DNA from: Dictyostelium discoideum
Taxonomy: Eukaryota
Direction: 5' to 3'
DNA: 64,000 nt
Assembly (NCBI GenBank): GCA_000004695.1
Contig: CM000152.2
Span: 256,001 to 320,000 of the forward strand
Each line of letters starts with the position of its first letter. Position 1 is the first letter of the stretch. The position numbers and the translations under genes were made by a program. This document shows positions 1 through 36,759 of the stretch, piece by piece. The notes under the pieces were generated by a model. It did not search any database, had not been told where the DNA came from, and was given only the letters and a program-made list of their open reading frames with translations.

Positions 1-194
1 TAACACATATTAATACTTTTAAAAAATTAAATAAAATTAATTTGAGATTTATTTTGATAGTTTTTGAAAAAAAAGATTTATTTTATTTTTTATTTTTTAT
101 TTTTTTTTTTTTAATTATATTATTTTAAATTGTTATGTTTGCTAATAATGGTAGTCTTTTGAATGAAAATAATTTTGTAATTCCGAAATATACC

Positions 195-1992: not shown

Positions 1993-2120
1993 GTTTTAAT
2001 AAAAAATGAAGAAAACTATTTTTTTTGAATTTCATTTTCTAGTCAAATTTCTTTGTAAACATCATATAGATTTTTGTACTTTTTACATTTATTATCAGCT
2101 ATTATTACTCCAGTTAAATT

Positions 2121-2976
2121 TTATTTAGATAACGATTTGATAGCTTCAATATTTTCATAAAAACTCTTTGTTAATGAATTTTTTGGTTGACAATTTGCTA
2201 AACTGACTAATGATTTTTCAAAATAACTATCTTTAGGAGTTTCTGGTTGAGATTGCGGTGCTGTTTGAGATTCTGATACAGATGATTGAGAATCTAATAA
2301 TGTTGATGATGATTCTGATGAGTATAATAGTTGTTGGCTTTCTAATGGTGGAGATGGTTGAGATTCTAATACAGATGGTTGAAATTCTAATGGTGATGAT
2401 GATGATGGTGATGATGATGGTGATGATGGTGATGATTGGGATAATTGTTGTTGAATTTCTAATAATGGTGATGATGATGATGATGATGATGATGGTGATG
2501 ATGATGGTGATGATGGTGATGATGGTGATGATGGTGGTAATGGTGGAGATGGTTGAGATAATTGGGTTGGAGAATCTGGTGGTGATAAGTCAATTGGCGA
2601 ACTGGTGATGATTGTAAAAGAGATGATTGAAGACTTAATTGGATTGGTGATTGTGAAGGTGATTGATTTGGTGAATTAATTACAATTAATGGTACTTGGA
2701 ATGATACTTTTGTTTCAATATCATTTGAAGAATCAGAAGCAGACTTTAAGATAAAGTCAAATAATGATAGTTTTGTATGATCAACCTCTACGGACTTAAA
2801 AACGACACCAAATTTTTCAGCTTCATTATTTTCAGGGGTTGTATCACTATTGGTTTGGGAAGTATCACTTTCAGAGACAGTGAGTGAAACAATTTTTTTA
2901 AAATCTCTATCAGGATCTTTATCAAGATGTTCAAGATTTATTCCATATGTGTCAGTACCAACAAAATTTTTATATA
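2121..2976 (-). CDS. 3' terminal exon of a Ser/Pro/His-rich low-complexity protein; 5' exons not resolved
   Basis: An open frame on the minus strand with no ATG reads ...ELYKNFVGTDTYGINLEHLDKDPDRDF...SPNQSPSQSPIQLSLQSS...PPLPPSSPSSPSS...ENIEAIKSLSK and ends at a TAA around 2121. It is entered through a tttttattacag acceptor near 2976. The ORF-track entry 2258-2608(+) is its antisense frame. Confidence 0.35.
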
Positions 2977-3685
2977 GCTCTGTAATAAAAAATAATAATG
3001 CAACTTTATAATATCCAATGGAGTCTGGGTCTACTTTTTTTTCCCTACTTTTTTTTCCCTATTTTTTTTTTTTTTTGATTATTATTATTATCATTTATTA
3101 CTATATAAAATGTAAATATTTCAATTAATATGAAAATAGTATTATTAATTTTCTTTGTTTTAAATTTTAAAAATTGTTTGGCTTCATAATTTCTCAACCA
3201 AAAGGTAATTAATTGTTTTGAAAATTATAATGATAATTTATTACCTTATAATAGACATTTTTAATTTTTAAAATTAACATGTATTTCAGAAATAGATGAA
3301 TCAATCGTCAAATCTCATGGGCTGTTCAGTAATGAATGCTTGATGCTTTCAATAGTTATTTACCCTCTTCATAAATGATGAAAAAGTAGGCATTAACCCA
3401 GAAAGAAGTGCAAGTAAATTATGACAAGGATAATGATCGTAAAATTAAAAATAAGAATTGGTTGGTGATGTAAAATAAAATAAAATAAAATAAAATAAAT
3501 AGTTTCTCCTTTCTTTATTTTTTCCACTCAAATTATCCAGTATTACCAAAAAGTTCAAAAATTATTTAATCCAGATGAAAATAATAGAGTTTAAAAATTA
3601 ATTTTATATTATTTAATTTTAAAATCCATTAGTTTATTAATTAAATTAAATAAATTACCATTTTTATTTTATTTTATTTTATTTT

Positions 3686-6139
3686 TTAATATTTTAAATT
3701 AATATTTGAATTTTTTAAAATAAAATCTTTTAATTCAATACTACCATGAGTGGAAGCGATAATGTAACAATTTAAATAATCATCTTGAGTGAATAAATTC
3801 GAATGATTTGTAAACAAATGAGAGAAAACTTCTAAAGCATTCAATTCACCAATACTTTGTAATAATTTTGATAAAAACATGGTTTTACTTTGTTGATCTT
3901 GATTACGTTTATCCATTATAAAATTTAAAAAACTATCTAATGTTTCAAAATTACAACGTTTAATAATATCACTAAAAACTGAATAAAAAAATAAATGATC
4001 AATAAAATTTATCATTTTCCCTGTAGGTTTATAAAATTCATTAAATTTATAAATAATGTTATTGTTGTTGTTACTGTCAATTTCTTTACAATCAATATTT
4101 TGATAGTATTCTATGATTTCATTAAAAATTTTAATTGTTTTACATTTTTCAATTCCAAAACTATCATAAATACCAAAACTATTTGATAATTCATCTTTTA
4201 TTAAAAAACATCTTTTAGAATCAACATCTTGTCTATTTTCTAAAACCCATTTTAATTTTTCTTTAGAATTCAAACAACTGTATTGCATATCAATTGGTGT
4301 TAATTCTGAAACAATTATTATGAATTTCCATAATGGAATATTTGCCATAGGTAAAAATGGATTTATACTATCATTTTTATTATCATCATAATTATCAGTT
4401 TCATCTAAATAATAAATATTTACTTTTTTCTCCCAATTAATTGGATTACATATTGGTTGCTGTTGTGGTTGATCTTGTTGTTGTTGTTGTGATGGTGGTG
4501 GTTTAATTAATTTTAAATTTTCAATTTCAATTAAATTAACAGAAAGTAAGAAATTAAACATTTTCTGAGATTTTATGAATTTAAAATGATTTCTTTGTAT
4601 TTTAATGTTATTTTCAAGTAAACCAACTGGATGATTAATTAAAAATTGAATTAAATCAATATTTTCATTAATTATCAATATCATTATTATGACTTCAATT
4701 TTACCTTGATATATATATAATTTTGTAAAATAATCATTTATTAAAGAATCAATGAATTTTGATTTAACCGATTCTAAATGCTTTGGATTCTTTAATAGTA
4801 ATCCAAATAATGGATATTTTGGTATATTAAATTGAGATAAATTATTTAAAGATTGGAAAGCACCAATTGATTTCAATTTTTTATAATCACCCATTCCAAG
4901 TGCAAGTCTTACAGTTTTCTTATGAGAATACTCTGGGAAATAGTTATTATCAAATTTAGCATTACAAAACATTAAATTACTTCTAAGATGTAAACTACTC
5001 GTATAAAAAATAGACATTCTAACAATTGATCTAAATGATTGATTACAACAATCTAAATCCTTAACCAAACAATTCAATTGTCGTTGTAATTGTTGTTCAT
5101 CTCTAAATTTATCAAGTTGTTCAATTGATAAAATTACATTTTCAGCTTCTTTAGATTTATTTACAAATTCAACGAATTTATAATTTTTAAATAATTCTTT
5201 TAAATAAATTATTGAATAACATGTATTTAAACAAAATTCCAATGTTTTATTCTTTACTGAAAAATCAATTAATGATGTAAAATCATCATTATCATTATCA
5301 TCATCATTATTATTAATATTAATATTATTTTGTGGTGGTATTGAAATTTTAATTGAATTTAAAAAATGAATTGATTTATTTCTATTTTCCATTGCCCCAT
5401 ATAAAATTATTTTTTTTTTATAATTTTTATTTGAATAATCAATATTAATTAATTGATAATATATTTTTGATTTTTCATCTTCACTTAAAATACAACCAAT
5501 TTCATCTTTTAAATAATTTGCAATATTAATTGAACCAACAAGAATTGATTTATAATATAATGGTGACCAATTTATATTTTTATTTTTATTTTTACTACCA
5601 CCACCACTTCTTAAAATTGGTTTAAAATTATATTTTTTAATTAATATATCAAATGCTACAACACAGTCACATAATGTTATATAAAATGCTGTTGAATTAA
5701 TAATTGAACTATTATTATTATTATTATTATCAATATCATTAATAAAATATTTTGAATAATTTTTAAAAAGATTAAAATAAAATTCTTTATTCTTTTCACT
5801 ATTTTTTTTAAAATTTTTAAAAATCTCTTGAAAAGGAATTTTATTTGAATCAAATGTAAATTTTAAAATCATTGAATTTTTAACTTTATCTCTTAATAAT
5901 CCTTTATTATTAATTGACATTAAATCTACATTTTTTAATTGATAATAATTATAATAAATTCTATTTTCCAAAATTTCATCATTATAATATTGTTGTTGTT
6001 GTTGTTTTATTTTTAAATATTTAAATATAATTGTTTTAATATATTTATTTTTCCAAATTTTAAAAAATAAAAAATCCTTATTATTATTATTAATACTATT
6101 ATTATTATTATTATTACTATTTTTGTTGTTGTTGTCCAT
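3686..6139 (-). CDS. Asn-rich hypothetical protein (817 aa), member of a lineage-specific family; paralog of the partial gene at 62473+
   Basis: Uninterrupted 817-codon ORF with a real ATG and an N-terminal polyN run. It shares the motif block ...LFKNYSKYF...(F/A)Y(I/T)...CDCVV... with the ORF starting at 62473. No recognisable catalytic domain. Confidence 0.6.
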   Translation of the reverse strand: MDNNNKNSNNNNNNSINNNNKDFLFFKIWKNKYIKTIIFKYLKIKQQQQQYYNDEILENRIYYNYYQLKNVDLMSINNKGLLRDKVKNSMILKFTFDSNKIPFQEIFKNFKKNSEKNKEFYFNLFKNYSKYFINDIDNNNNNNSSIINSTAFYITLCDCVVAFDILIKKYNFKPILRSGGGSKNKNKNINWSPLYYKSILVGSINIANYLKDEIGCILSEDEKSKIYYQLINIDYSNKNYKKKIILYGAMENRNKSIHFLNSIKISIPPQNNININNNDDDNDNDDFTSLIDFSVKNKTLEFCLNTCYSIIYLKELFKNYKFVEFVNKSKEAENVILSIEQLDKFRDEQQLQRQLNCLVKDLDCCNQSFRSIVRMSIFYTSSLHLRSNLMFCNAKFDNNYFPEYSHKKTVRLALGMGDYKKLKSIGAFQSLNNLSQFNIPKYPLFGLLLKNPKHLESVKSKFIDSLINDYFTKLYIYQGKIEVIIMILIINENIDLIQFLINHPVGLLENNIKIQRNHFKFIKSQKMFNFLLSVNLIEIENLKLIKPPPSQQQQQDQPQQQPICNPINWEKKVNIYYLDETDNYDDNKNDSINPFLPMANIPLWKFIIIVSELTPIDMQYSCLNSKEKLKWVLENRQDVDSKRCFLIKDELSNSFGIYDSFGIEKCKTIKIFNEIIEYYQNIDCKEIDSNNNNNIIYKFNEFYKPTGKMINFIDHLFFYSVFSDIIKRCNFETLDSFLNFIMDKRNQDQQSKTMFLSKLLQSIGELNALEVFSHLFTNHSNLFTQDDYLNCYIIASTHGSIELKDFILKNSNINLKY

Positions 6140-6159
6140 TTTTTAAATATAATACAAAT

Positions 6160-6197
<38 letters not shown>

Positions 6198-6492
6198 AAA
6201 AAAAAAAAAAAAAATTTAAAAAAATGAAAATAAGATGGAATTATAATTTTTAAATTAATTAATATTTAAATTTTTATTTTATTTTCTTTTTTTTTTCTTT
6301 TTATTTTTATTTTTATTTTTTTTATTTTTATTTTTATTTTTTTTTTTAAATTAATTACACACTCTTTCAAAATTCCTTATTTATATTTTTTACAACCTAA
6401 GTAGAAATAAAAAAAAGAGTGATAATTATATATATTATATATTATTTCTTTCTTGATTTTATATTATTATTATTATTTTTTTTTTTTTTTTA

Positions 6493-7444
6493 TTACAATT
6501 GTAAATCTAAAACAATTTTTCTACCATGACCAGATTGTTGTGATTTTAATAAAGCTTGATCAAATTCAGAGAATTTATGTTTTTCAATTAAAAGTTTAAA
6601 TTGTTTCTTACGGATAAGATCAAAGATAGCATCATAGACAGATTGTTTTTCAGAGTCAGTATGTTGTTCAAACCATTTATTTAACCAAAAACCACGAATT
6701 TGAATGTTACGGAAGATCAATTGAGAGGTTGGAATGGTGACTGGTTCACGAGACATACCACCATAAGTGACCAAGGTACCATTGTCAGCGAGGATTCTTG
6801 ATAACTCGGTGGCGGATTGACCACCGACGGCGTTTAATGCCAATTTTGGTGATGGTAAATCAGAGATTAATTTTCTGAATGCTGGTGTACGAACGTACTC
6901 TTCAGAGACGACGATGTCGCCACCCAACTGCTTGAGACGTTGGACGTTGTCTTCGAATTCTGAACCGTCACGAATGACATTGATGGTTTTGATACCACGT
7001 GCCTTTGCCAATTGAATGACTGACAAACCAACCATTGAGTTGGATGCGTTTTGAATGATGACATCGCCTTGTTGTAACTTTACGAAATCGTTCAATAACA
7101 AATAGGCAGTGGTTGGATTGATTGAAATGGTGGATAAGTATTCGGTTGGAATGTCTGATGGTACTTTAAATAATTGTTGTTCACTCCAAACACCTTTACT
7201 TCTCCATGATCCAAAGTGTTGTTTCATTGATGGTACTACTAAATCATTCTCTTTTAATCCTGTAACACCACTACCAACCTTTTTAACAACACCAACACCT
7301 TCCATACCTGCTACACCTCCAACTTGAACATTTGTACCATAAGTACCTTGAATAATATTTAAATCTGCTGGATTAATTGGTGCATGTAACATTTCAACTA
7401 AAACATCTTTATTTGAAATTTTATCTGTAATATTTTCATTTTCA

Positions 7445-7484
<40 letters not shown>

Positions 7485-7754
7485 AATATAGATATATTAA
7501 TATTTTTTTAATTTAATTTTTATTTATTCATTGCACTAAAAATATTGGGGAAACTTCCCCCTTCTGTGATCAACAATTTGGTTTAACCACACATACATGA
7601 TTTTTATTATTTTTTTTTTTTTTATTTTTTAATTTTTTTTTTTTAAAAAAACTTACTTTAAAGCAGTTGATGGTGAACCATGTGAAGCGATTTTAACACT
7701 TCTTGAAGTTGAATAACGACGAACTAATGAAATGATATTACGAGTAGAATTCAT
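6493..7754 (-). CDS. mecr: Mitochondrial trans-2-enoyl-CoA reductase (MECR/Etr1-like; medium-chain dehydrogenase/reductase superfamily), 2 exons
   Basis: Exon 2 (6493 to ~7447) encodes ...VLVEMLHAPINPADLNIIQGTYG...NASNSMVGLSVIQLAKARGIKTINVIRD..., which matches MECR. Exon 1 (~7657-7754) encodes MNSTRNIISLVRRYSTSRSVKIASHGSPSTAL, a basic/Ser-rich mitochondrial presequence, then a GTAAGT donor. The intron is ~210 nt. Confidence 0.8.
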
Positions 7755-7803
7755 TGTTTGATTAAATGTATGAATGAATTATATGCTGTATTAAATTGAA
7801 AAT

Positions 7804-7839
<36 letters not shown>

Positions 7840-8254
7840 AAAAAAAAAAAAAAAAAAAAAAATCAAAAAATTTTTTTTATTTTTCTTTTTTTCAAAAAAA
7901 TGAAAAAATTATTTTACGCACCGTAGTTCGAAAAACATATTTTTTTTATTTAATTTTGTTTTATTTTTTTTTTATTTTTTTATTCCATTCGTCTAAAAAA
8001 TTTTTCGTTTTATATTTTCAGATTTATTTATTTATATAAATATATAAATAATAAATAAATAAAAATAATTTTTTTTTTTTTTTTTTTTTTTGAACATAAT
8101 TTATTAAATGAATAAAATTATAACAAAAAAATAAGTAATAATAATATTTAATATTAATAATCTATAAATTTATAGTTGTATTCTTGCATACTCCAATTAA
8201 TGAAATTTTAAAAATAAAAAAAAATAAAAAAATAAAAATAAAAAAATAAAAAAA

Positions 8255-14651
<6,397 letters not shown>

Positions 14652-14729
14652 ATATATAATAAAGAAGAAAAAAAAAATCTTTTTTTTTTCCAGGTTTTTT
14701 TATTTATAAATTTAATTTTATTACAATTT

Positions 14730-14780
<51 letters not shown>

Positions 14781-14786
14781 ACTAAT

Positions 14787-15635
14787 TTAAAAAACGTCTG
14801 AAAAAAAACAGTGTTTTAAACATTGATCCCATGTTAATTTATCAGATTCTTTTTCTTTTTTACATAGTATACTCTTTATTAAAGAAATTAATGATTGATT
14901 TTCACTTTTATTAAACTTTTGAGGAATATCAATTGTTAATTGATTTTTATTCCTTATAAAATCTGCCATGGCTTCAAATGAATCAAATGGTGAAATTCCA
15001 GTTAAACATTGATATAAACAACATCCAAATGACCACATATATGTATGATCATATGAATATGGATTATTTGGTTTTAAAAAGATATCTTTTTTTTTTTATT
15101 TAATTTTTTAAAATAATTAATTAATAAATAATTAATAAACTCTTTTAATATTTAATTAAAAAAAAAAAAAGATTATTATAATAATTATTATTTACCTGGT
15201 GATAAAAATAATAGATTATAAATTACATTTTCGTCATGATCAAGTCTTGGTGTTAAACTATCATTATTTATAATAATACAAGTTAAATTAAAAAATTTAT
15301 TTGCAAATTTACAAAATAAGTTTGGATCTATAATAATTTTATTAAAAATTGATTGAATCATTTTAGGTGGTAAAGGACCATGTGATTGTATTATCTGTAA
15401 TAAATTTTTATGATCAAAATCACCCTAAAATTAGATTTAAAAAAAAATAAAAAAAAAATTAATAATTGGACAATACATTATTGTATAGAAAAAAAAAAAA
15501 AAAAAAAAAAAACCAGTTTAACAAATACATTTTTATATTTTAAATATATTTGATTTAATCTTTCTCTTTCATAACTATTTCTTGATTGATATCCAATTTC
15601 AATATTTGAATATCTGATTTGAACTCTTGATGATG
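14787..15635 (-). CDS. Protein kinase-like gene, C-terminal exons (kinase subdomains IX-XI); 5' part uncertain
   Basis: Last exon 14787 to ~15095 encodes ...DIFLKPNNPYSYDHTYMWSFGCCLYQCLTGISPF...LTWDQCLKHCFF, the D-x-W-S-x-G and C-lobe motifs. The preceding exon (~15196-15424) encodes GDFDHKNLLQIIQSHGPLPP...NLLFLSP, between a GGTAAAT donor and a ttttag acceptor. A further exon at ~15529-15635 encodes ...RLNQIYLKYKN. A possible first exon lies at ~16050-16110 (MMIYKSCKENDTGAHSFVR then GTGAGC). The activation-segment region is unusually long, so this may be a pseudokinase. Confidence 0.45.
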
Positions 15636-16534
15636 CTATTTTTGAATTTCAAAAAAAAAAAAAAAAAAAAAAAAAAAATGTATAACTAAAATTATTAACT
15701 ATAAATAAAAACAATTATTAAAAAAAAAAGTTTAAAACAGAAAAAAAAAAAATGAGATACAAAGTAAATAAATACTATTGGTAAAAAAATATTTATAACA
15801 TAAAAAGTAAAATAATTATAATTTAAACTAAAAATAATAATATAAAAAAAATAAATAAATAAAAAATTAAATATAAAAAAAAAAAAAGATTAAAACGAGG
15901 TTTAAAAAAAATAAATAAAGAATAATAAACTATTAAAAATAGAACATTGTTATTAAAAATTTTGTTTATCTGTTTTTGCTCTATTAATAAAAATAATTAT
16001 AAAATAATTATTAATAATTTAAAATTTTAACACCAAAAATAAAGCTCACCCTCTCACAAAACTATGTGCTCCCGTATCATTTTCTTTACAACTTTTATAA
16101 ATCATCATTTAATATTAATAATTCAATTTGAACTATTAATAGTGGTAAAAGGGGGTGAAAAAAAAAAAATTTTCAAATATATATTTTTTTTTTTTTTATA
16201 TAATAATCTATGTTTAAACAGAATATAAAAAAAAAAAACCGTTGATAAATGATGGAGTTGAATTATTTGAATTTTTTCTATTTTAATATTTTTTTTTTTT
16301 TTTTGATCACAACCAACATTATTAAATTTTTTTTTTTTTTATTAATTTTTTTTTTATTTTTTTTTTTTATTTTTTTTATTGTTTATATTATATTTATTTT
16401 AATAGTTTTAGAACACAAAAAAAAAAAAAAAAATTGAGTCTTAAAATAACATTTTAAAATATTAAAAATACAAAAAATTGGACATAGTCGAATAAACTTC
16501 CAATTTCTTTTTTTTTTTTTTTATTTATTTTCAT

Positions 16535-16740
16535 TTAATTTCTTTCAATTTTAATTCTAACAGTACCTTTAACATTATTTTTATCATCTTCAAATTTGAC
16601 GACTTCATCAAAAATACCTGATCTTACACGACCCATACTTATAATTTGACGTCCAATGAAATCATTTTTAACTAAATCTTCATCATACAATTCAACTAAT
16701 AAATCATTAACATAATCTTTTACCTTTATATAAAAAATTG

Positions 16741-16782
<42 letters not shown>

Positions 16783-17185
16783 TTTAAAATTAATATATTA
16801 GGTAAAAATTAATAAAAAAATAAAATAAAATAAAATAAAAGATGGATGATCATTTACCTTAATTTTGTCATATTCATTCCATGCTGGATTTAAGGTGGCT
16901 TTCTTTACTGTACTTTTGAATAAAACTTTTGAATATGTACCATCTGTTTTAATTGCTCTAACTTGAACAAAAGGATCAGCTTTTCCTATTAATTTTAAAT
17001 ATAATTAATTTTCAATTTGTTAATAATTATGGTTGTTTGTTTGTATATAAATAATAATGATAATAATAATAATAAAAATTCAAAGATAATAATAAATAAA
17101 TACCATTTAAATCTTGAGCTTCATAAACTATGCCTTGGTAGAGTCCGAATTTGAATTCTTGTTTTGGTTGATTTTCTTTACCCAT
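16535..17185 (-). CDS. Small single-C2-domain protein, 3 exons (about 17104-17185, 16858-16985, 16535-16723)
   Basis: Spliced product is MGKENQPKQEFKFGLYQGIVYEAQDLNG/GKADPFVQVRAIKTDGTYSKVLFKSTVKKATLNPAWNEYDKIK/VKDYVNDLLVELYDEDLVKNDFIGRQIISMGRVRSGIFDEVVKFEDDKNNVKGTVRIKIERN. This is the classic C2 pattern (DxxGxSDPYV...TLNPxWNE...D...G...I). Donors are GTATTT and GTAAAT; acceptors are ...attaatag and ...tataaag. Phases are consistent. No ORF-track entry, because the exons are short. Confidence 0.7.
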
Positions 17186-17540
17186 TTTCTATTTATATAA
17201 ATTTCTGGTTTTTGGTCGATTTTTTTTTTTTTTTTTTTTTTTTTATGTGATCAAAAAATAAAAAAAAAAAAAAGAAAAAATAAAAAAAAATAAAAATTTA
17301 ATAAAAAAAAAAAAAATTAAGATATTTATTTTCTTTGAAAGTTTTTGTATTAAAAATTATTTGTTAAAGGTTAAAAAAAAGTCTAAAAAACCCCTCCCAA
17401 GTTATTTTTAAAACAATAAAAAATGATTATATGAAACTACAACAAAAAAAAAAAAAAATAAATAATAAAAAATTAAATAATAAAATAATTTTAAATTTTT
17501 TAATTTTTTTTATTTTTTTATTTTTTTATAATTTTTTTTT

Positions 17541-19022
17541 TTAAATACTATAAGTAGTAGAATGAGTTGAACCACCTCTACCAGTCCAATTTACATGAAC
17601 TGGAGCACCTTTTGGATCATCAAGTAACTGGAAGGTATGAGCACCAAAGTAATCTCTTTGAGCTTGAACGAGATTGGCAGAGAGTTTAGCACAACGATAA
17701 CTGTCATAGTAGGAGAGGGCAGAGGTGAAAGCTGGAGTTGGGATACCGTGGAGTACTGAAATTGAGGCAACTTGTCTCCAACCATCTTGAGCGGCAGCTA
17801 ATTTATCTCTGAACCAACAATCGGTTAAAAGATTGTCAAGTTGTGGATTCTTATCAAAGGCTCCCTTGATTTCACCGAGGAAAGTTGAACGAATGATACA
17901 ACCACCTCTCCATAAGAGGGCGATATTACCATAGTTGAGGTTCCATTTATATTCTTTGGCGGCAGCTTTCATCATGGTGAAACCTTGAGCGTATGAAACC
18001 AATTTTGAAGCGAATAAAGCTTGTCTAACGGCTTCGATAACTTGTTCTTTGTCACCTGTGAATTTCTTGTTGGCTTCGTTTGGATTTGGACCAGCGAGAA
18101 TGGTTGAAGCTTTAACTCTTTCCTCTTTGAAAGAAGATACACATCTGGCGAAAACACTTTCGGCAACCAAAGTTAATGGGATACCGACATCTAAAGCATT
18201 GATAGCAGTCCATTTACCAGTACCTTTTTGACCGGCAGAATCTAAAATTGTATCGACAACGTAGGTGTTTGGATCCTTTTCACATTTCTTTGCGAAAATA
18301 TCGGCAGTGATTTCGATTAAATAGCTGTCAAGATCACCAGTGTTCCATTTGGCAAAAGTTTTTTGTAATTCATCATTGCTGAGACCGAGGTAATGTTTGA
18401 GGATGAAATAGGCTTCACTGATCAATTGCATATCACCATATTCGATACCATTGTGTACCATCTTGACGTAATGACCAGCACCACCATCACCAACCCAATC
18501 ACAACATGGTTGATCACCTGGTTGAACTTTGGCAGAGATTGCTTGGAAGATTGGTTTAACATGTTCCCATGCCTTTGGGTTACCACCTGGCATGATTGAT
18601 GGACCGAGGAGAGCACCTTCTTCACCACCAGAAACACCGGTACCAATGAAAAGGATACCCTTGGCATCTAAATCCTTTGTACGACGATCTGAATCGGTAT
18701 ATAATGAATTACCACCATCAATGATGATATCACCCTTTTCTAATAATGGTAATAAGAGTTGAATGAAATGATCAACGACTTCACCAGCTTTAACCATCAA
18801 CATAACTCTACGTGGGGTTTTTAATGATTGAACTAAAGTTTCTAATGAGTGACAACCAATGAATTTCTTTCCTTTACCTCTACCTTGAACAAATTCGTCA
18901 ACTTTGGATGTAGTTCTATTATAGACTGAACATGTGAATCCACGACTTTCCATATTTAATACTAAATTTTCACCCATAACGGCTAAACCAATTAAACCAA
19001 TATCACCTTTTGCTTCTGTCAT
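17541..19022 (-). CDS. gnd: 6-phosphogluconate dehydrogenase, decarboxylating (pentose phosphate pathway)
   Basis: Single 493-codon ORF. It has the N-terminal Rossmann motif IGLIGLAVMGENLVLN and the conserved 6PGDH segments ...GGNSLYTDSDRR...HYVKMVHNGIEYGDMQLISEAY.... Confidence 0.95.
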   Translation of the reverse strand: MTEAKGDIGLIGLAVMGENLVLNMESRGFTCSVYNRTTSKVDEFVQGRGKGKKFIGCHSLETLVQSLKTPRRVMLMVKAGEVVDHFIQLLLPLLEKGDIIIDGGNSLYTDSDRRTKDLDAKGILFIGTGVSGGEEGALLGPSIMPGGNPKAWEHVKPIFQAISAKVQPGDQPCCDWVGDGGAGHYVKMVHNGIEYGDMQLISEAYFILKHYLGLSNDELQKTFAKWNTGDLDSYLIEITADIFAKKCEKDPNTYVVDTILDSAGQKGTGKWTAINALDVGIPLTLVAESVFARCVSSFKEERVKASTILAGPNPNEANKKFTGDKEQVIEAVRQALFASKLVSYAQGFTMMKAAAKEYKWNLNYGNIALLWRGGCIIRSTFLGEIKGAFDKNPQLDNLLTDCWFRDKLAAAQDGWRQVASISVLHGIPTPAFTSALSYYDSYRCAKLSANLVQAQRDYFGAHTFQLLDDPKGAPVHVNWTGRGGSTHSTTYSI

Positions 19023-19850
19023 TTTTATTTATTTATTTATTTTTATTTTTTTTATTTTATTTTTATTTATTTTTATTATTATAAATGTATATTTGTATAT
19101 AACCAAATAATATTAATACACACCAAGAGAATGAAAATATTAAAAAAATTAAAAAAAAAAAAAATTAAAATTTTTTATTTTTTTTATTTTTTTTTTTTTT
19201 TTGAAGAACACCCCAATTTAATTAAAAAAAAAAAAAATAAATAAAATAAAAAAAAATAAATTCCGATCAAAAATTTGTTTCGGGAATATTTCGGCCAACC
19301 TGTCATGGTTTTTTTTCATATTCATGAATATTAATAAAAAAAAAAACTAAAAAAAAATTTATTATTTTGTGTATGGGAATTGTCAATTCTGGTATTATAA
19401 TCTATTTTGAATGCGTCCTGTTCTTCATATTAATTAAAAAAAGATAATAAAAAAAAAAAAAAAAAAAAAAAAAATTCAAAAAAATTCAAAAAAAAATAGT
19501 AATAAAAAAAAAAGAAACACTATCTAAAAGTTCAAACTCCAAATTAAAATTAAACCACACAGCATATAATTTTATATGTGAAAAATAATAAATTGTTTTT
19601 GGTAAAAAAAATAAAAAAAAATAAAATTAAAGCCATCATTGAAATAAAAAAAAAAAAAAAAAAAAAATAAAGAAACTTTCAAAATGAATGGAATTGGACC
19701 AATAATTTTAATAATATAATCAAAAAAAAATAAAATAAAATAAAAATAAAAATAAAAGTGAACTTCAAAATTCTATAAATAAAAAATAGTTAATTTTGGA
19801 TTTTTTTTTTTTTTTATTTTTTTTTTAAAATTATTTCCACTTTTGAATTG

Positions 19851-19896
<46 letters not shown>

Positions 19897-20715
19897 AAAT
19901 AAAGGGTTTTAAAAAAATATCGAAATATAAAAAGAAAAAAAAAAAAAAATAAATAAATAATAATAAAAGATTTGTTAAAAAAAATTTTTTTTTTTAATTT
20001 TTTTAAATTTTTTTTTTTTTTTTAATTTTTTTTTATTTTTTTTTTTATTTTTTTTTTTTTAATTTTTATTTTTTTTTTTGAATCAACTATCTATGACATA
20101 CAATAATATACAACACCAATAATATTACTATTATAAAAAATTTATTATTTATATAGTATTTGTTTTATTATTTGTTTTTTAATATCACTTTCACTTACCA
20201 TTTTTAGACTTTTTTTTTGTGTGTTTGTTTTCAACTTAAAAAAAAAACCACCAAAGTTTCAGACCTTGCTATTTATTTTTAAATATATTATTCTAAACAC
20301 AAAAAAAATAAAATAAAAATAAAAATTAAAATTAAAATAAAAATAAAAATAAAATAATATATTAGTACTCTTTTTTTTTTTTTTTTTTAAATAAAATATA
20401 TTTTTTTAATAGTTATAAAATAATTATAATTATAATAGTTAGTTAAACAATTAAATTTTCAAATCTAGATTGTATTTTTTGTGTGGGATTCAAAAAAAAA
20501 ATAAAAAAAAATAAAATAATAATAATAAAAAAAAAAAAAAAAAAATTAATTTTTTTTTTTTTTCTCTTCCATATTTATTAATACTACACACATGTACCAT
20601 ATATAAAATAAAATTTCTTATCATTAGAAACTTTAAAATTCAATATCATACTTCTTTTCTATTAAATTTTTCTTTTTTTTTTTTTTTTTTTCAAAAATAA
20701 AATAACAACATACAT

Positions 20716-20760
20716 AAACACACACACACACATACATACATACATACATACATAGATCAA
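20716..20760. repeat. (CA)n/(CATA)n compound microsatellite about 50 nt upstream of the Amt transporter ATG
   Basis: Sequence is aacatacataaacacacacacacacatacatacatacatacatag. Confidence 0.8.
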
Positions 20761-20801
20761 ACACATACACATAAATAATTATATTGTATATATAAATTTA
20801 A

Positions 20802-22197
<1,396 letters not shown>

Positions 22198-22390
22198 ACG
22201 AAAAAAAAAAAAAAAAAACTAACAAAAAAAAAAAAACAAAAAAAAAAAAACAAAAACCCATTTATATATATATTTTGTGTAAAATTGATAAATACTAAAC
22301 TATTTATTATATGTTTTTTTTTATAGAAAAAAAAAAAAAAAAAATTTAGTTAATTATTATAATTATAATAATAATAATATCAATTAAAGC

Positions 22391-27160: not shown

Positions 27161-27163
<3 letters not shown>

Positions 27164-27844
27164 TCAATTAATTTAGATAATGAAGAATTAAAAAATGAAG
27201 ATTTAGTTGCAAATATGAGAAAAGATTATAGAATGGGAGAATTAAAAGAAGAAGGATTATTAGAATCACCATTTAAAATGTTTGATATGTGGTTAACTCA
27301 AGAGATTGAATTGAAAAATGAAGGAGCAGAACCAAATGCATTCACATTAGCAACATGTTCAATAGAAAGAAAACCATCAGCAAGAGTTGTATTATTAAAA
27401 CATTTTGATCATCAAGGATTTGTATTCTATACAAACTACAATAGTAGAAAGAGTAAAGAGTTATCAGAGAATCCATTTGCGTCAATGACATTCCTTTGGA
27501 CACAAAAACAAGTTAGAATTGAGGGTAGTGTTGAAAAAGTCGATCGTTTAGAGAGTGAAAAATATTTTAAATCACGTCCACGTAGTTCACAAATTGGTGC
27601 ATGGGTATCAGAATTTCAATCATCAGAAGTAACCAAACAACATTTAGAAGAGAAAACAATTGAAATGGAGAATAAATTCAAAGATCAAGAAGTACCTTTA
27701 CCACCATTTTGGGGTGGTTGGAGAATTAAACCTTATGCTTTTGAATTTTGGCAAGGTAAAAGTGGTAGAATTCATGATAGATTTAAATACGTTCCAACTG
27801 ATTCAAATAATGATAATTGGATTACAAAGAGATTATCTCCATAA
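27161..27844 (+). CDS. pnpo: Pyridoxamine 5'-phosphate oxidase (PNPO/PdxH family, FMN-dependent)
   Basis: Single 227-codon ORF. PNPOx motifs: ...ATCSIERKPSARVVLLKHFDHQGFVFYTNYNSRKSKEL...MTFLWTQKQVRIEGSVEKV...YFKSRPRSSQIGAWVSEQS..., with the C-terminal dimerisation segment WGGWRIKPYAFEFWQG. Confidence 0.92.
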
Positions 27845-27983: not shown

Positions 27984-30396
27984 CTAAGGTATATTATTGA
28001 ACATACCCTTTGATTCACTACATTGACTTCCATCATTTGAAACTTTAATGTTAACATTTGAAGGTTGATTTGGTGCATTTGGTGGTACCTGACAAATGAT
28101 AGTACCTTGTTCATAAAAAGTGGCAGTTACACTAGTTGAACCAAAATAAACTTTTAGATCACCTGTATTTGAAAAGTTTGAACCTAGAATTACAACTCTT
28201 GTACGAGCTTTTGCTGATGCTGGAATAATTTCGCTAACAGTTGGTGGAAATGGTACTATAATAATAATAATAATAATAAATAAATAATAAATGATAATTA
28301 GTATATATGCATATTTTTAAACTATTTTAAAATAAAAAAAAAAAAAATTTACCATCTTGTTTATCAATTAAATAAATTGTATGAGAGAATACTTCAATTG
28401 GATCAGAAAGTACAGTTGCTTCAGGAAAAGTTTGAGATTCATTTGATATATATTTTTTTAAAACAAATTTTAATCTAAAAAGTGTTCTTAATTGTTGAGT
28501 AGTTGATAAAATTTTTAATTTTTTGAAAGGAGCGAAACCACCAGTGATACGTGATGTCTTTGTACCATCGATATAATTGACCAATTCAGTTTGATTATCA
28601 TTTCTTAATAGGGTTACTTCGACATAGAAATTTGAGAAATTCTCTGTATCTACACCAGGTCCACAAATCATAACTTGTGGGAAAGGTTTTAAAATTCTTT
28701 GATAAACAGTTTTTGGTGGTGGTTGTCTTGCAATCTTTAAATAAAAACAATCTGATGGATTATTATTATTATTATTATTATTTGGTGTTATCGCTAATTG
28801 ACGTTGTGGTGTTTGAGTTGGTTGTGATGATGATTTTGATACAGGTGTTGTTAAATTTGGTGTTGATGGTACTGACATAATTGGTGATAGTGGTTCTTTA
28901 TAATTATTTATAAATGGTGAAGATGGAGCGGATGAATTTTCAAAATTATTATTATTACTTTGTACAGGTGAGGTTGGTATTTCTACAGATATATTATTTA
29001 TATTATTATTATTATTATTATTATTTATACTATTTATATTACTATTATTATTATTATTATTATTCCCATTATATATTGGCATTGGTAATGAAATATTATT
29101 ACTACTATTATTATTACTATTATTATCATTTAATTTATTTTGCGGTATTATTGTATTATTTAAAATGTTATTATTTTTATTATTATTATTTTCATTTGTA
29201 AATGTTACACTTGTTGCTAAAATTCTTTTTAAATCTAAAACTGTTGAAGAATCTAATTGAAGTAATGCTAATAGGACAGCTAATAATTTTTTAGATAAAT
29301 TTGAAAACCAATGATGAAATAAGTAAAGATCAGATAGAGGTAACGAGATGATACCAGCAACGAAATGAATGATATCGATTGGTATTGAAGAATCTAAAGA
29401 CATGATTTTTTGAATGTGTAAATAGGTGTTTGAGAGGGACTGATCACCACCCAATGACTGATTGAAAATTCGTAACCTATCAAATGAGGCCAATCTAAAA
29501 TATTCTTGAACATTTAGAAAGAAATTGAATTGAAACTGTGGTGAACCTGGTGGAATGATATTATTGGTTAAATGAAACAATTGCAAATAGCTTATCTTGC
29601 ATAGTAAGTTTGCCAATTCTTTGAAATCCATAAACAACTTGAATGCATGGTTATTCGGATCCTGTAAATAGGTGCTATGATTGGCGATACTCAACAATGG
29701 TATCATCTGTGGCATATCGCTAAACATCTTACTTAACAATGGGAATCGCAATTCCTCGGTCAAATGAGGTTGTAACACCTTACAGAGGAAGAATAAATGT
29801 TGAATGGATTCATGTGCTAATGTCTCCAAATTGCTCAACAACTCGGTCAATTCAGTATTAATATCACCTGTTATAAATGTTTGTTCCATTTGTTGGATTT
29901 GTTGTTGTAATCTTTGAATTTCATTTTGTTCTTGTTGTAACTTTTGTTGTTGTTGTTGCTGTTGTAATAGTAATTCATTTTGTTGTTGCTGTTGTTGTGC
30001 TGCTATTGCTGCTTGTTGTTGAGCTTGTTGTTGTTGTTGAGTTTGTAATAACTGTTGTAATTGTGCTGCTTGTTGTTGTTGTAAAAGTTCAGCTTGTTGT
30101 GTTGCTTGTTGTTGTTGTAATAATTGTTGAGCTTGAATTAATAATTGTTGATGATGTTGTGTTGATGGTTGTGGTTGTGGTGGTAGTTGTTGATGATGAT
30201 GGTGGTGATGATGATGATTGTTTTGTTGTTGTTCAAGTTCAAGTTGATGTGAAAATTCACTAAATGAAGTTAAATTATATCTATTATTTACATTACTAAC
30301 ACTATTATTTAATCCGTATTGATTTGCAAACCCTGTTAAATCAATAGATTGTGATAATCTAAAGCTATCAAATGAGAAATTGTCTGAATTTGACAT
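27984..30396 (-). CDS. Gln-rich putative transcription regulator with a C-terminal beta-sandwich DNA-binding-like region followed by an IPT/TIG domain; 2 exons (28353-30396, 27984-28255)
   Basis: ORF 28327-30396 contains very long Q/A runs (QQQAAQLQQLLQTQQQQQAQQQ...) and a block YLKIARQPPPKTVYQRILKPFPQVMICGPGVDTENFSNFYVEVTLLRNDNQTELVNYIDGTKTSRITGGFAPFKKLKILSTTQQLRTLFRLKF.... It ends in a GTAAAT donor (...IDKQD|G). The downstream exon, after a 97-nt intron, encodes VPFPPTVSEIIPASAKARTRVVILGSNFSNTGDLKVYFGSTSVTATFYEQGTIICQVPPNAPNQPSNVNIKVSNDGSQCSESKGMF. That is a textbook IPT/TIG domain (P.I..I.P..G...GGT.V.I.G.NF......V.FG...............I.C..P). Confidence 0.7.
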
Positions 30397-32645: not shown

Positions 32646-32910
32646 TAAATTTAATTCATTTATTTTTTGATTTAAAATTTTTTATTAAAATATTTGCAAT
32701 TTTGTAGTAAAAAAAAAAAAAAAAATAGTATAAAAATTAAAAAATAATAAAAAAAAGAATAAAAAAATAATAAAAATAGTTATTTTTTTATTCTTTTTTT
32801 TATTATTTTTTAATTTTTATACTATTTTTTTTTTTTTTACTACAACATTGGTGAAAAGTAATTTTACGAGGCGCTGGTGAGTTGGTCGCCTTTTTTTTTT
32901 ATTTATTTTT

Positions 32911-35900
32911 TTATACACACCCCGCTACTGAAACATAGTCTGGTAGTTTTCCCATTTGATTTTCAGATAGTGGTGTTTGTGGTGGTCTTGTTGGTGGAGG
33001 TGTTGAGGATGAAGATGCTTCTTGTTCTTCTGTTGTTAGAGTACGTTCTCCTCCACTAGGTAACCCTCTAAGAGTTTTCAAATCAGATCTGTATCTAATT
33101 TTTTTTAAACTTATCTGTACTCCATCCATTGCATTTGAAAGTTGATTTTTCATATGAACAACAGTTCTTTTATTTCTATTTATACGTATTATCAATGCAA
33201 AGCCTCCACAAAAAGCGATAAATCCAGCAATTGCCATAAATGGTATTAACCATTTCTTTCTTTCAAATATACTTTTATATTTATCACTATCACCATTATT
33301 ACAACCATCAAATATTTTTTTACCAGTATTGTTTCTATTATTTTCAGATGATTGGTTACCTAGATCACCTTTATTTGGATTTTCAATATAAATCATTAAA
33401 TAGTTACCACCACTTTCCATTAATTGTAACATTTGCATATTGTTGTTGTTGTTGCTCTTGTTGAGTATTATTTCCATTTAAAGGTTCAACAATGCATGAA
33501 ATAATCATTGAATTAATAAAAGTAGGATCTGAACATCTTCTTTTACCAATTGATATTTCAATAGTTTCATTATAAAATTCATTTCCAAAAATTGTGATAA
33601 TACCCCCAATTGATGAATTTGAAATCATTGTTGAGTTTAATACAATTGGTGGAATATGAAATTGTTATGTTTTTATTTTGTTTTTCACCATTGAATTTGA
33701 TTTGACAAATTTGATCAAATGGTCCAGCCAATTCAATATCACACGAAATGGAAGTATAGTTTTCAAATGAACAATTATATATTTGTTGATTAGAGAAGCA
33801 ATAAACACTTGTATTATCACATGTGTTTGGAATAAAGTTTTCACCATTAATTATTATTTGACCGTCTGTGGAATTGAAAACTGGATAGTTGTTTATTTGA
33901 GTAAGTGTTGGTGATATATTAACTTTAAAACCTGTTGATGTATCATCGCATACGATTAAAGAAAGTTCACTTGATCCATATTCTGGTTTTAATGGGAAAA
34001 AAAAGAAGTTACTTTCAAATTTTATTTTCTTATTTGGGATATCATCAAATACTATCCCATTTGAAAATTGGATTTTAACTTTACCATTTTCATAGTAGTT
34101 AACATTGTTGGCATAATGGCCCGAACAACGAATCATTTGATCACTACTAATTGAACAGCTTGTAACATTTGGTAATTTGTAAAAAAGTTCAGTACGTGTA
34201 GTTTGATTTCCAATTGAAATTGAAATAAGATTCCTTCCACAACGCTTTGGAATTGGGAATGAGTACGTATGTGTTGAATACTCATTTGAATTTGAATTAT
34301 CAATACCTTGAATAGTTGTGTTATACATAAATGTAAGAATTGGTACACTAGAATGATTTAAAATATTAACATTATATAATTTAAAGTTTACAATTTGACC
34401 AAGTACTGATGGTGATGATGGTGATAATTTAACAAAGAATGATGAATCAATTTAGATTACATTTGATTTTTTACCATTTACAATTATATATAACTTTGAA
34501 TTTTTTATTTGATTTAATGGTGTAAATGATAGAGTTGTTTGTTTATCATTTATATTGGTTGTTAAATTTAATTGTTGGATATCATCAATATAGACTTGAG
34601 TTGATTCATTTGAACCTAAACAATCACCAATTAATTTAACATCTCCTTGAGGTAGAATAAAACCAGAAATAAAAGGTACATCAAATGAAAACAATAAAAT
34701 ATTATCATTAGCAATACCGTCTATTGAAACATTAACTCGTAAACCAGTTGAATCATTAATAGCACCAATTTGAACAGGATCTAAATTACATGTTATTTCA
34801 TTTATAGAAGAAATAACATTTTTGCATTGATGGTTACCAATTTTAACGATTATCAATGAATTGATTTTTTCAGATGATAATCTTTCTCCAGATAACAATT
34901 GTTATCTAACCACCTTTTGACTTTGGAATACTATTTATCTTTAAAAGAAAAGATCGGAAATCAAATTTGATTTTATTTGATTCTAAACCGACTGAAATAA
35001 TATTTACATAAATTGATTTACAATATTGTGAGGAGTATCTTAATTGAAAGAATTCATGATCAATTGAAAATAAAATTTTTTTATCAACTCGAACACCATC
35101 AATAAAGATATTGGCATCGGTTGAATTACAAAAATTTGAACCAATTGCAACCAATGAAGAATTATCACTAGAAATTTTATCAATGATTGGACTCGTGTGA
35201 TTAAACGAATACTTGAAGCCATTTGACCATTCAAATGTTATTTCGCCGCAACCACCTTTATAATCAAGAAATAAATTAGTTGCATCAAATGATTCATCAC
35301 CAATGTTGCCGACAAAAAAAACTTTTGTATTTGGAATTATAGTCAAATAAGTTGAAATTTAAAGAAGTAAGTAATATCCTTTGATTATAGAGCGACCACC
35401 TTTTGTTGAAGGTTTAAAATCACCTTGAATTAATGGAACTGGAAAATCCTTTGTAATATTTGTTGCTACACCACATGCATTAGAACCATCTACATCCATT
35501 ATTATTGATGATATCACAGCCCCATGAAATTTTTTTGGCAATTTCTTCATCTATATCTGCTGTACATGTTCTTATTCTGCTACCATTTTCACAAGTAAAT
35601 GGTAAAACATATTTTATATCAGGAAAATAAAAGCTTGAAAAAAATAAACCATTTGTTGGAGGTTTAAAATCACCTTGAATTAATGGAACTGGAAAATCCT
35701 TTGTAATATTTGTTGCTACACCACATGCATCAGAACCATCTACATCCATTAAACATGATGTCACACCACCATGTAATTTTTTGCAATTACTTCATCCATA
35801 TCAGCAGTGCATGTTCTTATTCTGCTACTATTTTCATAAGTAAATGGTAAAACATATTTTAAATCAGTAAAAGAAAAGCTTGAAAAAAAAACCATTTATG

Positions 35901-36081
35901 TCATATGTATAAACCAATGATTTATTTGTACCCTGAATACTTATAGAAATATTAAAATTAAAAGTGTTAAATTATTGCTATGATTTTTTAATTTTTAAAA
36001 TTTATAAATAATTACCAATAGGATGAGGAATATAAATCCCATCAATTTTTGAAATTAAAAAAACAAATAAAAATAAAAATA
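32911..36081 (-). pseudogene. Decayed gene for a secreted type-I membrane protein with repeated IPT/TIG-like (Ig-fold) domains, tgr/lag-like; in-frame stops, frameshifts and an internal ~240-bp tandem duplication
   Basis: A signal-peptide exon (MKVLFLFLFVFLISKIDGIYIPHPIG then GTAATT) lies at ~36016-36081. The body is split over ORF-track entries 35480-35764, 35359-35550, 34906-35346, 34452-34898, 33579-34328, 33404-33628 and 32911-33477. Adjacent pieces are separated by in-frame stops (TAA at 35359, TAA at 34449), a stop plus shift (TAG at 34906), or overlap in different frames (~33600, ~33440). Introns are not possible at these points because the gaps are under 60 nt. The content is IPT-like ([17 protein letters not shown]...ISCIVEP). 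The terminal block has a TM helix WLIPFMAIAGFIAFCGGFALII and a cytoplasmic tail. The unit 35386-35625 is repeated at 35626-35865 with about 90% identity. Confidence 0.45.
35386..35865 (-). repeat. Tandem duplication of a ~240-bp unit (2 copies, about 90% identical) within the 5' region of the tgr-like pseudogene
   Basis: The string ggaggtttaaaatcaccttgaattaatggaactggaaaatcctttgtaatatttgttgctacaccacatgcat(t/c)agaaccatctacatccat occurs at ~35390 and ~35630. Flanking sequence also matches. Copy A has one A fewer in a polyA run than copy B. Confidence 0.85.
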
Positions 36082-36759
36082 AAACTTTCATATTGTAAAA
36101 ATGTATAGATTGTGTAGTTTTAATATACAATATGTCGGCAAATAAAAATAATTAAAATAAAAAAAAAAAAAAAAAAAAAAAAACATATATATATAAGAAT
36201 AAATTTTTTTATTTTTTTTAATTGTTTGGACACACTTTCCCACACAAAAAAGTTTTTCTTTTTTTGATTTTCCATTATTATTGCCAAGCCATAAAAAATT
36301 TAATATTGGTGATGTTAAAAAAACACATCACACACTTTCAAATATAAAAAAAAATAAAATAGAAATCGAATTTTAAATCTCAATTATTTGAAAAAAAAAA
36401 AAAAAAAAAATTAAATTAAATTAAATTATAACCTGATTTCCATATATTTTTTTTATTTTTTATTAAAAAAAATGCATTATTGAAGTTTTATTATTTAACC
36501 TTGTGGTTGGGCGAAACAATTTTTTAAAAATTCATAGATATGGTGATATGGTTGTTTTTTTTGTTTAATTTTGTTTTTATTTTTATTTTTTTTGGGAATG
36601 TAATATTAAAGTATTTAAATAAAAGATTTTTTAAAATTCAAATAATAATTTTAAATATTATAAAATAAAAAAGATAATTAATTTAATTAATAATAAGTGT
36701 TGTTTTTTTTTTTATTTAATTTTTTGGATTGTAAAATTAAAAAGGTAAACTCTATTAAT

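Follow-up and report, generated by a model that had tools for sequence, protein, structure and literature searches.

The stretch of Dictyostelium discoideum AX4 chromosome 3 considered here (assembly GCA_000004695.1, contig CM000152.2, positions 256,001 to 320,000 of the forward strand; hereafter the window) spans 64,000 nucleotides with a GC content of about 22%. Between positions 36091 and 32911, its minus strand corresponds to one gene of the Tiger (Tgr) family that has been disabled. Translation of this strand in three frames yields long open reading frame (ORF) pieces with repeated frame changes across the interval. In order, they comprise a signal-peptide exon, a single intron, Ig_TgrO1 and IPT/TIG domains, a transmembrane helix, and a cytoplasmic tail. 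When the ORF fragments are compared with Pfam, two matches to PF24612 (Ig_TgrO1) and two to PF01833 (TIG) are obtained, all of which pass the curated cut-offs. The domain order is the same as that of TgrA1 and of the intact orthologues described below.

Architecture of the locus

The features of the locus, in window coordinates, are as follows (L004 and L006 are syntenic loci in related genomes, introduced below).

36016..36091, minus strand: exon 1, with the ATG and the hydrophobic signal peptide MKVLFLFLFVFLISKIDG, ending at a GTAAT donor (sequence, translation)
35941..36015, minus strand: remnant of intron 1, 9% GC, acceptor AG deleted (alignment with intact L004 and L006 copies)
35655..35897, minus strand: copy 1 of a duplicated 82-codon N-terminal module, conserved cysteine changed to tyrosine (alignments)
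35405..35654, minus strand: copy 2 of the module, with a +1 insertion at ~35538 and an in-frame +3 (alignments)
35197..35355, minus strand: first TgrO1-like Ig domain, partial match (Pfam PF24612, E = 2.4e-9)
34701..34853, minus strand: first IPT/TIG domain (Pfam PF01833, E = 3.5e-6)
34194..34421, minus strand: second TgrO1-like Ig domain (Pfam PF24612, E = 8.9e-13)
33470..33625, minus strand: second IPT/TIG domain (Pfam PF01833, E = 7.5e-5)
33187..33252, minus strand: transmembrane helix WLIPFMAIAGFIAFCGGFALII, 22 hydrophobic residues, then RINRNKR (translation, hydropathy)
32911..33186, minus strand: cytoplasmic tail, 91 residues and the stop codon 32913-32911 (translation)

Exon 1 aligns with exon 1 of intact Tgr copies and has a mean Kyte-Doolittle hydropathy of 2.87 over 13 residues; it is predicted to encode a signal peptide. 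Together with the repeated IPT/TIG and Ig-like E-set domains and the single C-terminal transmembrane helix with its tail, the predicted signal peptide supplies the three attributes expected of a Tgr family member. An earlier note on this DNA had proposed a tgr/lag-like IPT/TIG adhesion gene here and suggested a Pfam search for TIG/IPT domains. Both the outcome of that search and the minus-strand architecture bear the proposal out, as they do the C-terminal helix and tail that it described. Its signal-peptide exon (36016-36081) is likewise real, although the start was misplaced because the ATG lies at 36091.

Disabling lesions in the reading frame

Alignment with intact relatives, codon by codon, maps ten independent lesions in this gene: three nonsense codons, six frameshifting indels, and one deleted intron acceptor AG.

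35359..35361, minus strand: nonsense codon TAA; GGA (Gly) in intact copies (codon alignment)
34906..34908, minus strand: nonsense codon TAG; TTA (Leu) in intact copies (codon alignment)
34452..34454, minus strand: nonsense codon TAA; CAA (Gln) in intact copies (codon alignment)
near 35889, minus strand: frameshift -2, in a T run of module copy 1 (alignment)
near 35782, minus strand: frameshift -1, in an A run of module copy 1 (alignment)
~35538, minus strand: frameshift +1, in module copy 2 (alignment)
~34892, minus strand: frameshift +4, just after the TAG at 34908-34906 (alignment)
33652..33656, minus strand: frameshift, 2-nucleotide deletion at ~33654 (translation and alignment)
33413..33417, minus strand: frameshift, 2-nucleotide deletion at ~33415 (translation and alignment)
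between 35947 and 35946, minus strand: acceptor AG lost by a 2-nucleotide deletion (intact L004 and L006 copies read ...TTTAG at the intron end, followed by CTATTAGT)

The other AG dinucleotides left in the intron 1 remnant give joins that are out of frame. The 80-150 nucleotides around every lesion have a coding-like GC content of 20-32%, as opposed to 9% in the genuine intron, and the sequence around the lesions aligns without gaps to the coding sequence of intact homologues. No consensus donor spanning the TAA at 35360 was found, and the GT...AG pairs around the other stops would remove conserved domain residues. The signal-peptide ATG cannot give rise to a full-length protein, and the uninterrupted reading frame that a functional coding gene would show after removal of its genuine introns is absent.

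Much of this had been foreseen in the earlier note, which read the locus as a Tgr/lag family pseudogene; splicing indeed cannot remove the lesions. The three in-frame stops are present, the third lying a few bases from the 34449 given for it, and so is the shift that accompanies the TAG at 34906. Two frame switches placed near 33600 and 33440, and judged not to be introns, are the 2-nucleotide deletions at ~33654 and ~33415. The minimum of three frameshifts was an undercount, as there are six in addition to the deleted acceptor.

Relationship to the tgrA genes

The repaired translation of the locus matches only Dictyostelium Tgr-like proteins. Its best matches among AX4 proteins are P0013, P0014, P0010, P0009, and P0025, which are encoded in a tandem cluster on chromosome 6 and on chromosome 2; amino acid identities are 52-58%, and none reaches 60%. 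P0013 is tgrA1 and P0025 is tgrA5 by exact coding sequence length and chromosome in Table S3 of bioRxiv 10.1101/2025.10.22.684067, and P0010 approximates tgrA3, assigned by length and chromosome. The subfamily names of the AX4 genes are thus taken from the gene lengths in that preprint table and not from annotation. Because the length of P0009 equals the entry for tgrO4, 'tgrA-type' denotes a placement within the TgrA/H/I/O clade, the function of which is unknown (PMC12745789). With this meaning, the locus probably belongs to the fast-duplicating tgrA-type clade.

Compared with the AX4 tgrA genes, the locus has the same signal peptide, N-terminal cysteine-containing module, and succession of Ig_TgrO1, TIG, Ig_TgrO1, TIG, transmembrane helix, and tail. 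In contrast, the AX4 tgrA genes are intact, are located on other chromosomes, and share only 46-58% amino acid and ~72% nucleotide identity with the locus. No AX4 protein corresponds to the locus, which fits its being unannotated as coding; the sole close 'protein' is a stop-skipping gene model, P0002, treated below.

The kin-recognition label (TgrB1/TgrC1-type) that had been attached to this DNA does not hold, given that the closest AX4 paralogues are tgrA-type. No TgrB or TgrC proteins were among the homologues found. The locus shares the superfamily and the general domain plan with the TgrB1/TgrC1 pair, but it is not arranged head to head with a partner under a common promoter, nor does it lie at the tgrBC locus. 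Instead, it is the only Tgr-like locus in the window, flanked by an EF-hand gene on one side and a dynactin-p25-like (DCTN5-like, hexapeptide) gene on the other.

The chromosome 6 tgrA cluster of the laboratory lineage (L009 and L010; GCA_054883475.1, JBTAPE010000005.1) is a tandem series of genes for 844-1087 amino acids, whose succession of lengths (846/963/844/856/963/844) suggests that a segment of several genes was recently duplicated.

Tandem arrays at the syntenic position in related genomes

The equivalent locus was taken from four discoideum-clade assemblies by way of neighbouring proteins and homologues.

L004, GCA_054859355.1: array at 9795-22339
L005, GCA_054859235.1: array at 1-19994
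L006, GCA_054859385.1: array at 13923-20678
L007, GCA_054859205.1: tgrA-like models at 14143-20572

In L004, L005, and L006, blastn and self-comparison reveal a tandem array with a period of 2.9-3.7 kb, situated between the EF-hand gene (seen in L004 and L006) and the DCTN5-like gene (seen in L005). Shared flanking genes are PTPLA, double-stranded DNA-binding, and EF-hand genes upstream (L004, L006, and L007) and the DCTN5-like gene downstream (L005). L007 has tgrA-like gene models of 393, 128, and 886 amino acids in the same position, as read from the gene list only.

In array units, the promoter is followed by the 5′ two-thirds of the gene, which runs as far as the counterpart of window position 34060 and there gives way to a different, short 3′ end, such that the short units yield proteins of ~680-700 amino acids that lack the transmembrane helix. 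The last unit is full length in L004 and L005, and L006 ends within its third unit. Five long uninterrupted ORFs (680-685 and 926 amino acids) are present in L005, the last copy being the one with 926 codons. In L004, one short copy is intact, as is the full-length copy 4, which retains exon 1 and its donor and acceptor sites and stays open for 932 codons, as far as the retrieved sequence extends; the open frames of L006 measure 675 and 569 codons. Many copies in these three arrays are thus uninterrupted. The syntenic loci hold three to six tandem units in which the 246-bp module is single, whereas AX4 has one broken copy in which it is doubled.

Over 917 amino acids, the repaired translation and the terminal full-length copy of L004 share 82.6% identity, and the intron occupies the same position. 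Because identity to AX4 is only ~88-96% even in the flanks of L004 and L006, the 89-90% identity between the pseudogene and the L004 full-length copy represents ordinary orthologous divergence. Intact orthologues at the syntenic position, between the same flanking genes (L004 copy 4 and the last copy of L005), make the AX4 locus a unitary pseudogene.

Another candidate for an intact orthologue, P0004 (ACTFIY_005201, L002 10001-12941; 911 amino acids, 74% identity), was rejected. It is not syntenic, the alignment being confined to a 3.8-kb block, nor is it intact: two frame switches, near 11600 and 12495, are hidden under annotated 'introns', with 13 and ~33 conserved residues, respectively, missing at those points. 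The block (L002 9811-13314) is homologous to window 36271-32500 (84% nucleotide identity) and lies among unrelated genes on the contig that also bears the syntenic locus, ~200 kb away. A 235-bp fragment ahead of it (L002 9065-9299) matches window 34297-34061, its end coinciding with the array-unit breakpoint. The block appears to be a unit displaced from an array. Deposited models also fuse array copies, giving proteins of 1,325-2,238 amino acids.

An array in Dictyostelium firmibasis (L008 1-12970, CM069765.1) includes genes for 672, 648, and 967 amino acids, preceded by a 674-amino-acid copy that is cut by the start of the locus. It resembles the arrays described above in the short-short-long arrangement at its P0005 locus, but its downstream genes differ and synteny is not established. 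The D. firmibasis short forms share an alternative C-terminal region (…FDSFSFQLNK…NVCN.LLPI.NIE…). Because this species has both the same architecture and a conserved short-form C-terminus, the short/long arrangement looks old. Short copies of L005 (e.g. 10138-12180) and P0020 have a hydrophobic extreme C-terminus (…IQYNIILIILPIISFLAHNFLTSQLF) resembling a putative glycosylphosphatidylinositol-anchor signal.

Coding status of the AX4 locus

A second copy of the locus from the laboratory lineage (L001) comes from GCA_054883475.1, an independent de novo Nanopore and Illumina assembly that is probably of strain AX2-214, going by the strain table in PMC12745789. This assembly aligns to window positions 45765-22856 at 99.56% identity, with 23 mismatches and 17 gaps in 22.9 kb. 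Over 32705-36295, the single difference is at base 36153, upstream of the gene, and the gene itself is identical, all lesions included. The lesions are therefore not sequencing errors, and they are real in the NC4-derived laboratory lineage.

We conclude that the locus is very probably a non-functional, unprocessed pseudogene of a tgrA-type Tiger gene. The intron has been kept at its ancestral position, and the upstream sequence is homologous to that of other copies as far as 36296; the marks of a processed (retrotransposed) pseudogene appear to be lacking.

A locus that makes no Tgr protein might still be retained for some use, either as a gene-conversion donor to tgrA paralogues or as the source of a transcribed non-coding or truncated product, such as that of a 188-codon ORF with the transmembrane helix and tail. 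Indeed, the idea that expressed tgr genes gain diversity from pseudogenes and partial copies is put forward in both tgr papers (PMC12745789, bioRxiv 10.1101/2025.10.22.684067). In addition, array copies elsewhere have a homogenised core of 95-97% identity, and the ratio of nonsynonymous to synonymous differences per site (pN/pS) on the AX4 branch is below 1. However, identity to the chromosome 6 tgrA cluster of the same lineage is flat at ~72%, with no gene-conversion tract of at least 90% identity, and thus carries no trace of recent exchange with that cluster. Moreover, no partner copy is left at the AX4 locus, and the 188-codon ORF is without a signal peptide of its own. Retention for a use of this kind is improbable.

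It is highly improbable that a functional gene is present in which unannotated short introns or recoding remove or bypass the stops and shifts. Chance GT...AG pairs do occur around two stops, and the automated GenBank model P0002 (ACTFIT_009899; 830 amino acids; L001 10001-12839) joins the ORF pieces by invented introns. Yet this model begins at an internal methionine, jumps each stop by such an intron, lacks the signal peptide, drops conserved domain residues, and includes two out-of-frame stretches. Furthermore, every lesion is embedded in sequence that can be matched to intact homologues codon for codon, in surroundings whose composition is unlike that of the genuine intron. Splicing is offered no consensus donor across the TAA at 35360, and the genuine intron has itself lost its acceptor. 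We regard P0002 as an annotation artefact that provides no evidence of function.

Finally, the suggestion that the true allele is intact and the reference contains sequencing or assembly errors, raised in the earlier note as a strain-specific allele with sequencing problems and favoured by the position of several indels in error-prone A or T homopolymer runs, is hardly credible and, in that earlier form, refuted, because GCA_054883475.1 matches every base of the gene and three of the lesions are substitutions to stop codons rather than changes in homopolymer length.

A tandem duplication of the N-terminal module

The two module copies in AX4 (35897-35655, 243 bp, and 35654-35405, 250 bp; blastn E = 3.7e-93) are 89.5-90% identical, with 231 matches in 257 aligned columns, 20 mismatches, and indels of 2, 2, 2, and 1 nucleotides. 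Tandem Repeats Finder missed this duplication, which was recovered by a repeat search and pairwise alignment. The module is single-copy in all homologues examined. Because the unit is exactly 246 bp, or 82 whole codons, in the intact ones, the duplication was originally in frame. The copies are joined at AAA[A/T]GGT, a 7-nucleotide imperfect microhomology found at both ends of the unit, which points to slippage or unequal exchange at this motif as the way in which the 82 codons would have been duplicated.

Measured against the closest outgroup copies, the module copies have 12 derived substitutions in common, with another 7 private to each. In this region, AX4 and the second assembly show zero differences, and a divergence of ~0.3% has been reported among North American D. 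discoideum strains. Given these values, copies that are only ~90% identical do not support a recent event, and the duplication is instead old relative to strain-level divergence. It could equally have occurred in a working gene.

The earlier note was correct that a tandem duplication of ~240 bp exists, and misplaced it at 35386-35865. The note called the duplication recent, and the difference between the copies was understated as a 1-nucleotide change in poly(A) length and a 3-nucleotide indel. It had also proposed that the event happened after, or during, decay, which nothing in the in-frame unit or in the shared and private substitutions shows.

Possible origin of the single AX4 copy

Sliding-window comparisons reveal that the single AX4 copy is a mosaic. 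Its 5′ part (36296-35454) is 87-93% identical to short-form 'type A' copies versus 72-79% to the others, the core (34853-34404) is 95-97% identical to all copies, and the following segment (34403-34104) is 91% identical to the terminal full-length copy versus 73-83%. The AX4 copy thus combines a short-form 5′ end with a full-length 3′ end. We hypothesize that a short-form copy and the terminal full-length copy may have recombined by a crossover in the homogenised core, which would have deleted the intervening array and left a chimera that then decayed, unless decay was already under way. The breakpoint would fall between 35454 and 34404. Collapse of an array by unequal homologous recombination is a possible origin of the single AX4 copy, to which we would give somewhat less than an even chance. 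That the NC4-derived laboratory lineage (AX4 and AX2) lost a whole tgrA array in one such event, with its several short copies and one full-length transmembrane copy, an arrangement common to the discoideum clade and D. firmibasis, is put forward a little more tentatively. If true, the standard laboratory strains would be missing a group of surface proteins that are still intact in wild relatives.

Several points weigh against this account or against the pseudogene reading as a whole. The proposed collapse is read from the mosaic identity pattern, which gene conversion or an ancestral single copy with a type A 5′ end could match. The AX4 branch has a pN/pS of 0.41, compared with 0.29 for the intact (L004) branch (Fisher p = 0.43). 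Because these values are not significantly different, there is no statistical sign of relaxed constraint; either inactivation was recent relative to the AX4 branch or the test was underpowered. The strain labels that accompany the GCA accessions (AX2-214, CR116C, OT3A, M4B, and S6B) derive from a published strain table (Table 1) and not from the records themselves.

Relation to known tgr pseudogenes

In AX4, 26 tgr pseudogenes have been reported, for example tgrC_ps1 (PMC12745789, bioRxiv 10.1101/2025.10.22.684067), and other strains sometimes have an intact version of a gene that is a tgr pseudogene in AX4 (bioRxiv 10.1101/2025.10.22.684067). The locus described here is an ordinary member of this already catalogued class and its novelty is low, the mildly new element being only the locus-level contrast with the arrays in relatives. 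Like the annotated pseudogenes, it has internal stops and intact counterparts in other strains, and it fits birth-and-death evolution. It differs from them in lying outside the tgrBC hotspot, as a lone copy among housekeeping-type genes, and in its internal 82-codon duplication. A literature search for a dictyBase name (tgrA_ps and similar) returned nothing, and the locus may or may not correspond to one of the annotated AX4 tgr pseudogenes.

This stretch of the reference genome therefore very probably holds a dead Tgr gene rather than a mis-assembled live one, and it offers a concrete example of the birth-and-death dynamics described for the family. Studies of TgrA function in AX2 or AX4 would be blind to this locus. 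Moreover, the number of tgr genes can be overestimated from automated GenBank models such as ACTFIT_009899 and ACTFIY_005201, in which invented introns mask stops and frameshifts.

Other features of the window

An AT-rich, near-perfect palindrome (32703-32770 / 32780-32847) lies ~65 nucleotides downstream of the pseudogene stop, with 68-nucleotide arms that are 96% complementary and a 9-nucleotide loop. It is present in L001 and absent at the equivalent positions of L002, L005, and L008, and is therefore not part of the repeat unit. Directly 3′ of the stop, in a flank that is otherwise ~12% GC, is the GC-rich 24-mer GGCGACCAACTCACCAGCGCCTCG (32866-32890, minus strand). Its identification as a transfer RNA fragment was considered and rejected, the window being without transfer RNA genes.

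Two genes downstream of the pseudogene, at 28327-30396 (minus strand), a 771-amino-acid model in the second assembly carries a TIG domain; tblastn detects no similarity between this gene and the pseudogene, and the 689-amino-acid ORF at 28330-30396 alone has no Pfam match. Window ORFs identical to AX4 proteins are DDB_G0278113, DDB_G0278093, DDB_G0278103, 6-phosphogluconate dehydrogenase, and pyridoxamine-phosphate oxidase (PNPOx). The last of these (27161-27844, plus strand) differs by one residue between the window and the second assembly (FKYVPTD in AX4, FKYLPTD in the latter).

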